Part shown: positions 53,622-59,750 of the stretch, in pieces
How positions within the stretch are numbered: position 1 is the first letter of the stretch
Layout: the number at the start of each line of letters is the position of its first letter
Assembly (NCBI GenBank): GCA_038231435.1
Contig: JBBRLJ010000006.1
Location: forward strand, 32,001 to 96,000
Source of the DNA: Planctomycetota bacterium
GTDB taxonomy: Bacteria; Planctomycetota; UBA11346
DNA length: 64,000 bases
Direction: 5' to 3'
Made by a program: the position numbers and the translations under genes
The notes under the pieces: generated by a model
What the model saw: only the letters and a program-made list of their open reading frames with translations
What the model was told of the DNA's origin: nothing
Database searches by the model: none

Positions 53622-56600
53622 TCAGTTCTTCTGGTCGGGCTCGACCGCGACCGGTTCTCCGCCCGTGATGGCCGGAGTCTCGCCATCGGTCGGCGCCGTG
53701 GTGTCGACGATGCGGCCCTTGAAGGACAGCAGCAGCGGCGAGGCCACGAACACCGACGAGTAGGTGCCCGAGAGCAGGCCGATCAGCAGGGTCGCGGTGA
53801 ACGCCTTCAGCGCATCTCCGCCGAACAGCAGCAGCACCACCACGGTCACGATCACCGTCGACGAGGTCAGCACCGTTCGCGGCATGGTCTGGGCGATCGA
53901 GATGTCGATGATCTCGGCCAGGCTCTTGCTCATCTTGCGCAGATTCTCGCGGATACGGTCGAAGGTCACGATCGTGTCGTTGATCGAGTAGCCGATGATG
54001 GTCAAGAGCGCCGCGATGACCGTCAGGTCGATGCGGATGCCGAGCATCGAGATCAAGCCGACGGTCAGCAGCACGTCGTGGAACAGCGCCACCACCGCGC
54101 CGATGCCGAAGCGGAACTCGAAGCGTGCCGCCACGTAGGCGAGGATCGCCAGCAGGCTGAGCATGATGGCGAAGAACGCGCGCCACTTCATCTGGCCAGC
54201 GACCTGGCCCGAGAAATGCTCGCTCGACGGGAACGGCTTGGCGATGGTCACGCGGCGCGCGGCGGCGGCGTTGCTGGTGGTGTTGTAGAGATCCTCGGCG
54301 GCGACCACCAGGCCGTTGAGCTCGCTGGGCGAGACCAGCTCGGTGGTCGACTTCGCGAACAGGTCGCGCAGCCGAGCGGCGACACGGTCGGAGGCGATCT
54401 CGGCGGCGTCCGCCCGCGCATCCGGCCTGGCGCGGAAGGTGGCCGTGAGTTCGAGCGCGTGCGGCTCGTCGACGTAGGTCGGTACGACCTTCTCGAGCTT
54501 GTTGCTCGCGGCGAGGCGATCGGTGATCCCGGCGAGCTGGTCGCCCTTCACCGGCTCGAGCACCGCCAGGCGCAGGGTGATGGTGCGGCCGCTGAACGAG
54601 GCGGCGAGGATCTCGTCGCCTTCTTGGCCGACGACGCCGGTGAACGCCTTGGCGATCTGCTCCTTGAAGGCCTCGGAACGGTTCGAGATGTCCTCGGAAA
54701 GCTTGCGGATCTGCAGATCCAGCGGCACGATCTGCTTGGACTGGATCTCCTTGGCCTCGGCCGACTGCAGGCCGTCCTTCTCGCGCGCTTCCTCGGCCTG
54801 GCGCTGCAGGTCGGCGCGCGTCTTCTCGAGCTCGGAGCGCTTGCTCTCGATCTGGCCGCCTTCCTCGTCGCGGCTGCGGAAGACCCACTCGCGGCTCGCG
54901 GCGTGGTTGCCGCCGAGTTCGGCGAAGTACGGCTGCTTGCGCAGCTCGCGGGGGTCGAGGAGGTTGAGGTTCTTCGGGTCGGATTCGTAGGCCTTGGCAA
55001 TGGCCTGCTCGACCTGGCCGAGGGTGTACGGCTCCTTCAGCACCACCTGCGCGGCGTTGCCGCCGGTGAAGTCGATGTCGAAGTTGCGCTCGAAGGTGCC
55101 GCCTACCACGTGATGGCCGAACAGGAACCAGCCCAGGCCGACCAGGCCGGTGACGATCGAGAAGACGTAGCCGACCCAGCGCCATTCGACATACGGCAGC
55201 TGCACCGTCGGCACCCAGCTGGCCATGGACACGGTGACCTTCTTGCGGCACAGCCAATCGGTGAGCAGCCGGCCGATGTACACGCCGCTGAACAGGTTGA
55301 CCACGATACCGATCATCAGCGTCAGGCCGAAGCCCTTCACCGGGCCAGAGCCGATCCAATAGAGGATGAACGCGGTGATGAAGGTCGTGAGATGCGCGTC
55401 GACGATGGTCAGGAAGGCGCGGTCGTAACCGGCGGAGATCGCCGCCTTCAAGCCCTTGTCCTCGCGCAGCTCCTCGCGGATGCGCTCGAAGATCAGGATG
55501 TTGGTGTCGACCGCCATGCCGATGATCAGCACCAGTCCGGCCAATCCGGGCAGCGTGACCGTGGCGCCGAAGATCGACAGCGTCGACCACACGAAGAAGG
55601 TCGTGGCGATCAAGCACAGGTTCGCGACCGTGCCGAGTCGGCGGTAGTAGATCCACATGAAGAACACGATCAGGGCGAAGGATACGCCCATGGTGATCAC
55701 CGAACGCGACACCGTCTGCTCGCCGAGCGTCGCGCCGACCACGCGTTCGGAGAGCACTACCGGCGTTACCGCCAACGAGCCGCCGCGCAGGACCTCGCGC
55801 AGGGCCTCGATCTCCTCGTGGCTGAACTGGCCGCTGATCTGGCAGCTCGACGAGCTCGGGGAGATGACCTTGGGCGCCGAGCGCACTACGCCGTCGAAGA
55901 GAATGGCGATCTCGCCGGTGCCGGTCTTGTTGGTGTCCTCTTCCTTGGCCGACTTGGTGAATTCCTCGTTCTTCACCGCGCCCACCGCGGTGAACTCGAT
56001 GCCGACCGCTGGCTGGCCGTTGTCGGTGGTCTCGTAGGCATTGGCGACGTCCGAGCCGACCAGGTCGGCGCGGCTGAGCAGGTAGAATTTCGTCGGCGGT
56101 TCGCCGGCCGAGACGTGGTCGGGGGCGATGATTTCGCTGCGGTTGCGCTTCTTCAGCTCGTCATGGCCGGGAGCGATGTCCCACTGGCCCTTCTCGTTCT
56201 TGACCACCGCGGGGTTCGGATCGGTGGGCGAGACGGTGATGTAATAGGAACCCCGGCCCGCGCCGCTGCCGTCGACGAAGGGATCGATGACGTGGCGGAA
56301 TTCCAGCCGTCCGGTGGTCTCGAGCACCTTGCGGGTGCGCGCGGCGTCAGCGCGCGTGCCGCCGGGAATGACGACCTGCACGTCGCCATTGGACAGGCGC
56401 GCGACCGAGGGCTCGGTCAGGCCGCGTTCATCGAGGCGGTTGCGCAGGGTATGCACGACCTCGTCGTCGGCGGCGATCTGGCGGCCGTCGTCGCTGTGCA
56501 GGCGGCAGATGAACTCGACGCCGCCGCGCAGGTCGATGCCCTGGGTCAGGTGGAAGAGCTCGCGAGGCGGATTCGGGCGGCGGAACGGTACCGACTGTAG

Positions 56601-56993
56601 GCGCGCGCGGAGGTCGGATTCCTTGACCGATGGGTCGACGGTCACGGTGATCTTGAGGCCCGAATCTGCGGGTTCGCCGACGGTCTTGATCGGCTGGAGC
56701 TCGCGGCGCGGATTACCGCCGAGGCGGCGCTTGACCTCGTCCAGGTCGGACTGGGTGGTCTGCAGGACGTTGCCCGCCACGTCCTTGAAGACGACGTCGT
56801 AGTGCTGCTGCTTCTTCTCGGCTTCTTTCCCCGCTGCGGCATCCGGCTTGGCGGCCTCGGCCTCTGCTTCGGTCGCCTTGACCTCGGCCTGCACCTCCTG
56901 GGTGCCGAGGAAGCTCGAGCACTTGTTCTCGAGGAAGAGCAGGAACAGGCAGATCAGGCCGACGGCGGCGGTGACGGTCAGGCGGCGGAGCAT
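53622..56993 (-). CDS. secDF: Fused protein translocase SecDF
   Basis: GIDLRGG, VGATLG, GMAVDTNILIFERIREE, DFTGG, HDVL, GYSINDTIVTFDRIRE. Confidence 0.97.
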   Translation of the reverse strand: MLRRLTVTAAVGLICLFLLFLENKCSSFLGTQEVQAEVKATEAEAEAAKPDAAAGKEAEKKQQHYDVVFKDVAGNVLQTTQSDLDEVKRRLGGNPRRELQPIKTVGEPADSGLKITVTVDPSVKESDLRARLQSVPFRRPNPPRELFHLTQGIDLRGGVEFICRLHSDDGRQIAADDEVVHTLRNRLDERGLTEPSVARLSNGDVQVVIPGGTRADAARTRKVLETTGRLEFRHVIDPFVDGSGAGRGSYYITVSPTDPNPAVVKNEKGQWDIAPGHDELKKRNRSEIIAPDHVSAGEPPTKFYLLSRADLVGSDVANAYETTDNGQPAVGIEFTAVGAVKNEEFTKSAKEEDTNKTGTGEIAILFDGVVRSAPKVISPSSSSCQISGQFSHEEIEALREVLRGGSLAVTPVVLSERVVGATLGEQTVSRSVITMGVSFALIVFFMWIYYRRLGTVANLCLIATTFFVWSTLSIFGATVTLPGLAGLVLIIGMAVDTNILIFERIREELREDKGLKAAISAGYDRAFLTIVDAHLTTFITAFILYWIGSGPVKGFGLTLMIGIVVNLFSGVYIGRLLTDWLCRKKVTVSMASWVPTVQLPYVEWRWVGYVFSIVTGLVGLGWFLFGHHVVGGTFERNFDIDFTGGNAAQVVLKEPYTLGQVEQAIAKAYESDPKNLNLLDPRELRKQPYFAELGGNHAASREWVFRSRDEEGGQIESKRSELEKTRADLQRQAEEAREKDGLQSAEAKEIQSKQIVPLDLQIRKLSEDISNRSEAFKEQIAKAFTGVVGQEGDEILAASFSGRTITLRLAVLEPVKGDQLAGITDRLAASNKLEKVVPTYVDEPHALELTATFRARPDARADAAEIASDRVAARLRDLFAKSTTELVSPSELNGLVVAAEDLYNTTSNAAAARRVTIAKPFPSSEHFSGQVAGQMKWRAFFAIMLSLLAILAYVAARFEFRFGIGAVVALFHDVLLTVGLISMLGIRIDLTVIAALLTIIGYSINDTIVTFDRIRENLRKMSKSLAEIIDISIAQTMPRTVLTSSTVIVTVVVLLLFGGDALKAFTATLLIGLLSGTYSSVFVASPLLLSFKGRIVDTTAPTDGETPAITGGEPVAVEPDQKN

Positions 56994-57089: not shown

Positions 57090-57641
57090 TCACTTGGACT
57101 TGCCGATCTCGGCGGCCGCCGGAGCGCCGGCGACGCTGCCGATCGCCGACTTGTTGAAGGTGATGATCGCGGCGTCGTCGCCGGAGCCCACCCTCAGGTC
57201 GATGGTCGACTCCCCGACCGCCGCCACCTCGCCGTGGGCGCCGCCGATGGTCACCACCTTGTCGCCACGCTTGAGGCCCGAACGCAGGTCCTCCTGGCGC
57301 TTGGCTTCCTTCTTCTGGCTGCGCGTGGCCATGAACCACATCAGCGCCAGCGGCACCGCCATGATGAGCAGGAAGTTCATATCGAAGCCGCTGGCCCCCC
57401 CCTTGGGCGGAGCCTGGTGGCCATCCTGGGTGACCGGAGCCGAGGTGGTCGTGGTGGTCGTGGTGGTGGTTCCGCCGGCGGGAGCCGCGCTCGAGGTGGC
57501 CGTGGTTCCGCCGGCGGGCGGCGCGGTGCTTTCCGCTCCGCCATTGGATTCGGCGCACGCGCCGGCCGCGAGCGCGAGCAGCAGGCACGCGGCGAGGGTC
57601 GAGCGGAACGCGGAGCTCAGAGGACGCGGGAGAAAAGGCAT
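57090..57641 (-). CDS. yajC: Preprotein translocase subunit YajC with N-terminal signal and Thr/Ala/Pro extension
   Basis: LKRGDKVVTIGGAHG, ITFNKSAI; upstream of secDF. Confidence 0.92.
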   Translation of the reverse strand: MPFLPRPLSSAFRSTLAACLLLALAAGACAESNGGAESTAPPAGGTTATSSAAPAGGTTTTTTTTTSAPVTQDGHQAPPKGGASGFDMNFLLIMAVPLALMWFMATRSQKKEAKRQEDLRSGLKRGDKVVTIGGAHGEVAAVGESTIDLRVGSGDDAAIITFNKSAIGSVAGAPAAAEIGKSK

Positions 57642-57711
57642 GGTGGAAATCCGTGGGGGTTCCGCCGCGGCGGAGCCACGACGGATGGGGGTTGCGGGGA
57701 AGAGGGTCGCG

Positions 57712-58047
57712 TCAGGGCGCGCGCGGGCCGCGCGACGAGCCGAGCAGCAACGCCGGGCAGTCGTGCGGGGCCGCGGCGGCTGGAGCCGTAGCGGCGGGCC
57801 GGGCAGCGGAGCTGGAATCCGTTCCGAGAACATCGGGGAGGCGCTGCCGGGAATCGTCCGCGCGAGCGATCTCGGCGGCGGCCATCTCCATCAGGGCATC
57901 GGCGCGCCTGATCACGGCCTGGTCGTCGACCCGGCCATCGCCGCCGACGAGGCGGTCGAAGCCGATGCGCGAGCCGCCGAGGGCTGACAACGCCAGCGCG
58001 AGGAGCGCGGCGCAACCCTGCAAGAAACGGCGGGGGAGCAGAGCCAT
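57712..58047 (-). CDS. Small exported protein ending RGPRAP; candidate translation-arrest leader of yajC-secDF
   Basis: MALLPRRFLQGCAALLALALSALGG signal-like N-terminus, 111 aa, stop 70 nt before the yajC ATG. Confidence 0.6.
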   Translation of the reverse strand: MALLPRRFLQGCAALLALALSALGGSRIGFDRLVGGDGRVDDQAVIRRADALMEMAAAEIARADDSRQRLPDVLGTDSSSAARPAATAPAAAAPHDCPALLLGSSRGPRAP

Positions 58048-58154
58048 GGGCCGCGGAGTGTATGGCGGGAGGGAAAGGGGCAAGAACCCGCCAGGAATGC
58101 GGCAAAGGTCCGAAGGAGGGGTCAGGAACGGGCCGCGCCCGACCAACCCCAGCG

Positions 58155-59750
58155 TCACTCCAATTCGCGGGAGCGTCGGTATTCGAGGTAGTTGCCCTTC
58201 CAATCGGTGAGACCGGATTCTTCCATGACGATGACCCGGGAACCGACGATATCGATGAACTCGCGGTCGTGGCTGACGAAGATCAGCGTGCCGGTGTACT
58301 CTTCGAGCGCCTCCTGCAGGGCCTCGATCGACTCGAGGTCGAGGTGGCTGGTGGGCTCGTCCAGGACCAGCACGTTCGCCTCCTGGAGCATGACCATCGA
58401 CAGCAGACAGCGGACCTTTTCGCCGCCAGAGAGCACCCCGACCTGCTTCTTCACGTCGTCGCCCGAGAACAGCATGCGCCCGAGCATCGAGCGCATGTTG
58501 TTGATGTCCTGGTTGTCGGTGTACTGCTTGATCCATTCCAGGATCGAGAGCTCCTTGTTGGCGAACAGGCTCGAACCCTCCTGGGGGAAGTAGGCCTTGG
58601 TCGCGGTCTGCCCCCACACCACCTTGCCCTGGGTCGGCTGGAGGTCGCCGAGCAGCAGGCGCACCAGCGTGGTCTTGCCGATGCCGTTGCGGCCGACGAT
58701 GCCCACGCGGTCGCCGCGGTCGATGCGGGTGGTGAAGTTGGAGATCAGGTTCTTGCCGCCGGGATGGGCGAAGGTCGCCTTCTCCACCGTGATCACGTCC
58801 TGGCCGCTGGGCTTGGCGACCTTGAAGAACAGCCGCGGCGCCACGCGCGACGACGGCATCACCTTCTGTCCGGACAGCGCGTCGATCTGCTTCACGCGGC
58901 TGGTCGCCTGCTTCGAGCGCGCGGCGTTGGATTTGAAGCGCTCGACGAACAGCTTCAGCTTGGCGACCTGGCGCTCGATGCGCCCGACCTCTTTGCTGCG
59001 TTGCGCGCGCGCCAGCTGCTCCTGCGCCATGTACACGTCGTACGGGCCGGCGAAGGCGCGGATGGTCTTGTAGTCGCAGTCGAGGGTGTGCGTGCACACG
59101 CGGTTGAGGAAGTGGCGATCGTGGCTGACCACGACGATGCAGCCTTCGTAGTCGGCGAGGTACTGCTCGAGCCAGACGATGGCCGGGATGTCGAGATTGT
59201 TGGTCGGCTCGTCGAGGAGCAGCAGGTCGGGCTTCGAGAAGATCGCCTGCGCGAGCAGCACCCGCACCTTCAGCGCCTGGTCGATCTCGCCCATCTTCTT
59301 CTGGTGCACGCTCGGCGGCACGCCCAGATCGGTGAGCACCTCGGCGGCGGCGGTCTCCTGCGCGTAGCCGTCTTGCTCCTGGAACTTCTCCTGCAGGGTC
59401 CCGAGGCGCTGGCCGTCGGCGTCAGAGAAATCGGCCTTGGCGGTGAGCGCCTCCATCTCGGCCTGCAGCTTCCAGATCACCGGATGGCCCATGAGCGCAA
59501 CGTCGAGCACGCGCACGTTGTCGTGGCCCGAGATGTCCTGGCGCAGCGAGCCCATGCGCTTGCCGGGATCGAGGACCACCACCCCGGTGGTCTGATCGAC
59601 CTCGCCGGAGATGATCTTGATGAAGGTGGTCTTGCCGGTGCCGTTGGCGCCGATCAGTCCGTAGCAGTTGCCGCCATTGAGCCGCAGCGAGACGTTCTCG
59701 AACAGGATCTTCTGGCCGAAGGCCATGCTCAGGTTGGAGGTCGAGATCAT
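58155..59750 (-). CDS. ABC-F family ribosome-associated ATPase (YbiT/YkpA-like)
   Basis: Two ABC domains (GANGTGKT/LDEPTNNLD; GRNGIGKT/LSGGEK/LDEPTSHLD), SHDR, no TM. Confidence 0.93.
   Translation of the reverse strand: MISTSNLSMAFGQKILFENVSLRLNGGNCYGLIGANGTGKTTFIKIISGEVDQTTGVVVLDPGKRMGSLRQDISGHDNVRVLDVALMGHPVIWKLQAEMEALTAKADFSDADGQRLGTLQEKFQEQDGYAQETAAAEVLTDLGVPPSVHQKKMGEIDQALKVRVLLAQAIFSKPDLLLLDEPTNNLDIPAIVWLEQYLADYEGCIVVVSHDRHFLNRVCTHTLDCDYKTIRAFAGPYDVYMAQEQLARAQRSKEVGRIERQVAKLKLFVERFKSNAARSKQATSRVKQIDALSGQKVMPSSRVAPRLFFKVAKPSGQDVITVEKATFAHPGGKNLISNFTTRIDRGDRVGIVGRNGIGKTTLVRLLLGDLQPTQGKVVWGQTATKAYFPQEGSSLFANKELSILEWIKQYTDNQDINNMRSMLGRMLFSGDDVKKQVGVLSGGEKVRCLLSMVMLQEANVLVLDEPTSHLDLESIEALQEALEEYTGTLIFVSHDREFIDIVGSRVIVMEESGLTDWKGNYLEYRRSRELE

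Follow-up and report, generated by a model that had tools for sequence, protein, structure and literature searches.

Closest to the case considered here are the arrest peptides of the RQH family, which are RAPP-like and encoded upstream of secA or secDF (Fujiwara et al. 2024, PMC10987492). In the accessible parts of that work RAP* is listed among the ApcA variants and used as a query motif, and the accompanying code files upstream open reading frames (uORFs) of secDF ending RAP$/RGP$ under uDF_RQH for the order UBA7662 and under NAP-stop for Rhodothermales. The uORFs of secA that those parts have on record from Planctomycetota are LPPP and, in the order UBA2386, RAPA/RAPG. Termination arrest is demonstrated there for NAP-stop, NSP-stop and DGMK-stop, the NAP-stop uORFs of secDF or secA arresting with the stop codon in the A site in dependence on residues -3 and -1. 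From what is available of PMC7897499 (Sakiyama et al. 2021), RAP occupies the P site when ApcA arrests, and its A site tolerates G, P, C, N, T, S, D and A and not the 12 other residues; for ApdA and ApdP, Pro is strictly required there. The RAPP stalling mechanism in the ApdA/ApdP structures uses that A-site Pro, as far as the available text of PMC10951233 extends. Also pertinent are CruR (DUF2946), a RAPP-type uORF acting through Rho-dependent termination (Roy et al. 2022, PMC9426467, in its accessible portion), the LudP preprint, available parts of which describe one motif arresting both elongation and termination, and the G-P-R-A-P-P uORFs listed from other phyla in passages of PMC12992588.

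The locus to be compared with these lies in a Planctomycetota genome, within a 64,000-nucleotide stretch of DNA that was analysed as a whole (the window). Its features, in window coordinates, are as follows.

57712..58047, minus strand: the uORF, encoding a candidate secretion-monitoring arrest peptide of 111 aa, from ATG at 58047 to TGA at 57712, with the C-terminus LLLGSSRGPRAP-stop
57973..58047, minus strand: residues 1-25, a basic n-region and hydrophobic h-region assigned by hydropathy, resembling a signal peptide or a single membrane anchor
57742..57972, minus strand: the spacer, divergent in sequence and conserved in length (64-103 aa in relatives), dN/dS 0.40
57712..57741, minus strand: the putative arrest motif G103-S-S-R-G-P-R109-A110-P111 plus TGA, with R and P invariant, dN/dS 0.11
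57642..57711, minus strand: the C-rich intergenic region of 70 nt, with a weak GGA ribosome-binding site 8 nt 5' of the yajC ATG
57090..57641, minus strand: yajC, 183 aa, PF02699 at E 6.7e-21 over residues 91-168, with a signal-like N-terminal extension
53622..56993, minus strand: secDF, fused, 1123 aa, with PF02355, PF22599 and PF21760
58078..58083, minus strand: the -35-like element (TTGC..) of a promoter-like motif, predicted from a pattern shared with relatives
58057..58062, minus strand: the -10-like element TACACT, 9 nt 5' of the uORF ATG, consistent with a near-leaderless mRNA
58155..59750, minus strand: an ABC-F ATPase gene immediately upstream of the uORF, with two ABC domains and ABC_tran_Xtn

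The uORF forms the last part of an open frame (57712..59097) that extends back into the upstream ABC-F gene. A sequence-only reading of the window had picked out this 111-aa frame at the end of a longer shadow frame and placed it 70 nt upstream of co-oriented yajC-secDF, and both points hold, on the minus strand, with yajC starting at 57641 and with Pfam matches for yajC (PF02699) and secDF. Under a codon model trained on the host genome the uORF frame tops the six frames in coding score (+9.6, the next being 0.0), with GC1/2/3 of 0.78/0.61/0.86; the plus strand across 57712..58047 has no meaningful translation. The N-terminus had been read as signal-like, and hydropathy bears this out, the best 12-residue window scoring 2.48 in the host peptide and 2.05-2.93 across 17 of 17 family sequences. 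Tat export of the peptide was considered and set aside, the RR-FL of the host sequence not being conserved in relatives. The YajC proteins of the order themselves open with a basic-hydrophobic, signal-peptide-like segment, and an Ala/Gly/Pro-rich linker joins it to the YajC domain; this holds for the 30 uORF-bearing and the 11 uORF-less genomes.

The order to which the host belongs consists of 48 genomes, all of one family, with a YajC match in 47. Five of the 47 relatives were excluded, one for want of yajC and four for having less than 300 nt of contig upstream, and among the 42 assessable ones an equivalent uORF stands in the same place before yajC in 31, representing 14 of the 16 assessable genera. 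Of these, 25 end RAP-stop (two cut by a contig end and one frameshifted), one RSP-stop, three RAPC or RAPCA, one RAPT plus six residues, and one RDPPAA. In the frameshifted member (L069, from genome G050, 62% complete) the signal segment lies out of frame with the motif; G047, a close relative, has an intact uORF, and either a sequencing error or a decayed gene would account for the frameshift. Its absence from 11 of 42 relatives (7 of 7 in genus g2, one with 357 nt upstream only, 2 of 2 in g18 and 2 of 6 in g3) makes the uORF dispensable. On a quick SecDF tree of 28 rows, with no bootstrap, four uORF-less genomes fall in three places, each beside uORF-bearing ones, which suggests that the gene is ancestral in the order and was lost at least three times. 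The divergent RDPPAA-stop member (L015:733-990, genome G005) is the weakest and has no match to the profile; its genus is sister to the uORF-less g2 on the same tree, and replacement or drift may therefore explain its form. Judged by comparison across these genomes, the uORF is no chance open frame and is a real, conserved protein-coding leader gene.

Searching 1.84 billion representatives with a profile gave 78 clusters at 50% identity, the query members included and with genomic context known for a minority. In 301 genomes of the phylum, strong matches to the profile occur inside the family alone, in 9 of 15 relatives, and eight weak ones (E 5e-4 to 8e-3, judged by E-value alone) occur among the 285 other genomes. 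At five out-of-family loci yajC was seen in four and the uORF motif in none. A motif scan of genome contigs yielded at least 119 matches; of the 80 with full flanks, two had yajC/secDF in the flank and five were family-like. Among 80 metagenome yajC loci, 67 of them assessable, one had such an ORF, and it was a family member. Nothing convincing outside the family thus emerged from the out-of-family loci, the contig motif scan, the phylum profile search or the metagenome yajC loci, and the original description of the leader as lineage-specific stands. Upstream of secA and yidC in the host genome, as roughly called, there is no leader ORF of this kind. For the uORF peptide the ESM Atlas lists unnamed Bacteroidota clusters first, with recognition below threshold; clusters named SecM, SecM_small and DUF2946 are among the nearest named ones at scores of 0.90-0.91, again below the recognition threshold and a lead only, and the largest named cluster set nearby is DUF6769.

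The C-terminus is where the family is most distinctive. Relatives' ORFs upstream of yajC-secDF, collected as had been proposed, have a conserved signal-like N-terminus and a terminal R-x-P motif, and 77 of the 78 clusters from the profile search end R-[AS]-P, the motif Arg and Pro being invariant in 30 of 30 full sequences and in all 77 clusters. The conserved core is GSAxG[PA]RAP, with lead-in counts among the 77 of 70 for the first G, 60 for S, 65 for A, 72 for the second G, and 52 and 25 for P and A respectively. The motif had first been written 'RGP-RAP', which does not survive the comparison, the Arg of 'RGP' in the host occupying the variable x (G 35, R 20, L 8, N 5 and H 4 of 77). Nor is the RAP-stop motif itself new, as had also been supposed, since it is on the list of Fujiwara et al. 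(PMC10987492, in its accessible parts). As DNA, the pattern for GPRAP plus TRR occurs genome-wide at about control frequency, a few times per genome.

After R-[AS]-P comes a stop codon in 66 of the 77 clusters and a sense codon in the other 11 (C 3, D 3, S 2, T 2, N 1), so that a stop in place of the second Pro, the other part of the sequence-only reading, is dominant and not required. All 11 sense residues fall in the set tolerated by ApcA, giving 0 of 77 non-permissive. That set follows 51% of the 457 internal RAP in the host genome and makes up 26% of the single-base neighbours of stop codons; for about seven independent events, a number that we estimate, the probability of a permissive-only outcome is about 0.009 or less, which lends stalling indirect support. 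Pro follows RAP in 0 of 77 clusters and in 1 of 30 genomes, that being the divergent RDPP member. By analogy with the toeprints of ApcA, ApdA, ApdP and RQH, the predicted P site is the Pro111 codon (57717-57715), which puts the stop codon in the A site. In the host, RAP-stop endings are not avoided (4 of the 3859 genes in a rough call), and Pro is over-represented as the last residue, at 13.1% against 5.7% overall by the same rough calls, so any arrest must need the lead-in residues as well. If Pro-stop slows termination, such an excess of terminal Pro is unexpected.

The explanation preferred here has three steps. The uORF product would be a RAPP-like (RQH/ApcA-type) secretion-monitoring translation-arrest peptide, usually stalling at its own stop codon; the uORF would be the first cistron of a uORF-yajC-secDF transcript and carry the operon's promoter-like motif; and the stalled ribosome would keep Rho off the untranslated gap of some 70-200 nt, a transcription attenuation as described for CruR. 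That the product is an arrest peptide is very likely, that it is a secretion-monitoring one controlling yajC-secDF is probable, and how the stall raises yajC-secDF output is the least supported step.

For the second step the relevant feature is TTG[CA]nn-N15/16-TAnnnT, present before the uORF in 24 of 30 uORF-bearing genomes, a count that is not independent, since the pattern was derived from these same sequences and the starts were partly picked by it. The TAnnnT element lies 8-10 nt upstream of the chosen uORF start in 23 of 30 genomes; for comparison, 94 sites of this kind were counted among 3166 host ATG genes. In the uORF-yajC gap the promoter-like motif is found in 1 of 30 (background 0.012 per 280 nt), and in uORF-less genomes it lies 33-71 nt before yajC in 10 of 11. 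Occurring before the uORF, rarely in the gap, and before yajC where the uORF is absent, the motif indicates that transcription of yajC-secDF most likely starts at the uORF. A standard sigma-70 scan found no promoter; it demands spacers of 16-18 nt and matches at 9 of 12 consensus positions, and the spacer of the motif here is 15 nt. More independent than the count before the uORF are the position of the motif in uORF-less genomes and its frequency across the host genome, where TTGCnn-N15-TAnnnT is enriched, with 91 occurrences against 35-55 at other spacings, its spacer falling two bases short of the textbook 17. The host has a further TAnnnT peak 6-7 nt before ATG (187 sites among 3166 genes), which suggests many leaderless mRNAs in this genome. 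As for the gene upstream, 12 of 41 upstream regions, which differ in length, have an ABC-F match, two uORF-less genomes included, and in three g3 genomes the uORF closely follows the ABC-F gene without the promoter motif; ABC-F proteins relieve ribosome stalls. In one relative (L042, G012:C35) the yajC-secDF distance is about 1 kb greater than in the others.

The gap between uORF and yajC is 69-196 nt in 30 of 30 genomes and never shorter than 69 nt; that between yajC and secDF is at most 10 nt in 8 of the 18 loci where it could be placed. Ribosome-binding sites in the host are GGA/AGGA/GGAG 5-8 nt before ATG, and that of yajC is weak. A hairpin of the SecM type, which a stalled ribosome would open to unmask the SD of yajC, was sought by equilibrium folding only and not found: opening the yajC initiation region costs on average 6.7 kcal/mol in the free state and 6.5 kcal/mol once a stalled ribosome is modelled in, the median change being 0.0 (n=30). 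The control energies are 13.4 and 12.8 kcal/mol (150 of 864 control gene pairs), the yajC site being already open. A consensus scan for intrinsic terminators gave 0, and loose terminator-like hairpins followed by U are not clearly enriched, at 16 of 30 gaps against 25 of 70 controls. Rho is encoded in the host genome. The C-G skew of the gap is 0.135 compared with 0.034 (SD 0.146, 814 host controls), and in each of 13 genera the mean exceeds the control median; at these loci the yajC-secDF gap is equally C-rich (0.21 vs 0.14, n=10, p=0.16), as are 7 of 11 uORF-less yajC leaders, and the skew is thus not specific to the uORF gap. What is specific, unlike the skew, is length (at least 69 nt), which fits Rho loading and equally fits keeping a stalled ribosome off the yajC start. 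For the output step, transcription attenuation via Rho is the leading candidate at somewhat under an even chance, mRNA stabilisation or membrane localisation is a tentative second, SD unmasking is doubtful, and some other route would be rather a surprise. Only tentatively, too, can the whole combination be put forward, that of a near-leaderless Sec monitor with a RAP-stop termination stall and with control by Rho attenuation or mRNA fate and not by SD unmasking.

The same negative results at the gap lend some weight to the reading in which a ribosome stalled on the arrest peptide, and docked at the translocon through the signal sequence, keeps the operon mRNA at the membrane or protects it from decay; YajC and SecDF would then be produced beside the translocon, and their expression level is not what is set. 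It shares the motif and architecture evidence with the secretion-monitor reading, it would account for there being no SD switch, no enriched terminator and no specific C>G signal, and it too needs a long gap so that the stalled ribosome spares yajC initiation; SecM is known to localise its mRNA. Against it is the length of the spacer, the distance from hydrophobic window to P site being 64-103 aa (n=29) and 73-88 aa in 26 of 29, since length-conserved spacers are a signature of force-released monitors. This alternative is considered unlikely. A low-complexity spacer rich in Ala, Pro and Ser had been noted at the outset; the length-conserved spacer is upheld, and its Ala/Pro/Ser richness is not common to all members.

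A further alternative dispenses with the stall, the product being a small protein, exported or anchored in the membrane, that acts as an accessory to the YajC-SecDF complex, and GSAxGPRAP a tag for binding or degradation. Selection bears on this in both directions. Eight close pairs give dN/dS values of 0.21 (codons 1-35), 0.40 (spacer) and 0.11 (last 12 codons), so the N-terminus and spacer are also under purifying selection; LLLSAxGGxR is conserved after the h-region; and the probable co-transcription with yajC-secDF and the ordinary host genes that end in RAP-stop are equally what an accessory protein would allow. Yet the spacer has no conserved column, the middle 80 residues averaging 26-28% column identity, and conservation peaks at the ribosome-proximal end. 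The natural read-through variants obey the A-site rule of ApcA, which a binding tag would not predict, and the product has no Pfam match, with no meaningful NCBIfam match for any of 17 family members. An accessory role is accordingly judged improbable, and the preferred reading remains that of an arrest peptide. As judged from the alignments, purifying selection is on the peptide, and the idea that an RNA or DNA element is what is conserved, the ORF being incidental, is very hard to credit: a uORF coding score (+9.6) under the rough gene caller's cut-off of 12 and the frameshift between signal and motif in G050 speak for it, and against it stand freely varying third positions in the motif codons of 30 sequences, with Ser as both TCN and AGY, Arg as CGN and AGG, and all three stops, the low dN/dS over the last 12 codons, and a local fold of window positions 57600-57800 no better than shuffles (z -1.27).

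Neither the main text of PMC10987492 nor 12 of its supplements use the word 'yajC'; because genes upstream of secDF homologues were taken in that screen, and yajC is never mentioned, the family was probably missed by it. Nor does yajC appear in the passages of PMC12992588 or its 10 supplements that were searched. Our literature search, to which most subscription papers were outside coverage, found no prior description of an arrest peptide upstream of yajC and no direct test of RAP-stop arrest. An order-wide family (78 clusters at 50% identity) is added to the map of secretion monitors, and more may hide before yajC, a position apparently outside the reach of the published screen. As A-site Pro explains ApdA/ApdP stalling and this family does without it, its members make up a natural variant series bearing on how RAP blocks release factors, and its A-site variants (stop, Cys, Asp, Ser, Thr and Asn) could then show whether release and peptidyl transfer are both blocked by a single conformation of the nascent chain. 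With no SD hairpin found, some other way of controlling output has to be considered, and a near-leaderless RAP-stop monitor, if that is what this is, would join export sensing to a CruR-like output and make monitors upstream of yajC a blind spot of earlier screens.

With RQH the locus shares a small uORF co-oriented with sec genes and lacking any Pfam or NCBIfam match, except that yajC here intervenes before secDF; an N-terminal localisation signal, here by hydropathy in 17 of 17; a RAPP-like C-terminus in three or more genomes of one order, here in 31 of 42 relatives; and a signal-motif spacer of more than 30 aa, here 64-103 aa (n=29). It differs in being upstream of yajC, one gene farther from secDF than the screen in PMC10987492, from its accessible parts, appears to cover, in forming its own sequence family with the stop codon dominant in the A site, and in that no SD-sequestering hairpin of the uDF_RQH_Enterobacterales kind was found. 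CruR offers a RAPP-type uORF, a long intergenic region and a high-GC host, as here (PMC9426467, in part); it senses copper via CXXC and controls a TonB-dependent transporter, whereas no CXXC is conserved in the present family and the Rho signature in the uORF-yajC gap is not specific. The NAP-stop uORFs have in common with it a sec uORF with a stop codon at the A-site position; here, by contrast, there is Arg and not Asn at -3, a GSAxG[PA] lead-in, a stop replaceable by C, D, S, T or N in 11 of 77, and another phylum. ApdA and ApdP (RAPP, upstream of secDF) and SecM (RAGP, upstream of secA) resemble it as exported leaders with R-x-P/G at the P site and sec genes downstream; unlike ApdA and ApdP it has A-site Pro in the divergent RDPP member only, and the SD-unmasking switch of SecM was not found at yajC. 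The nearest parallel to the motif is ApcA of Actinobacteriota, upstream of yidC2 (PMC7897499, in the text available), with R-A-P and a relaxed A site: RAP-stop members exist in that family too, one listed ApcA ends G-P-R-A-P-A, and both families avoid following RAP with Pro (0 of 77 here). ApcA itself is membrane-spanning, lies upstream of yidC and belongs to another phylum, the sequence resemblance being in the motif. The best reading of these comparisons is that the uORF would behave like ApcA at the ribosome and resemble ApdA/VemP in position, and so would be a member of the RAPP-like class and not a new class.
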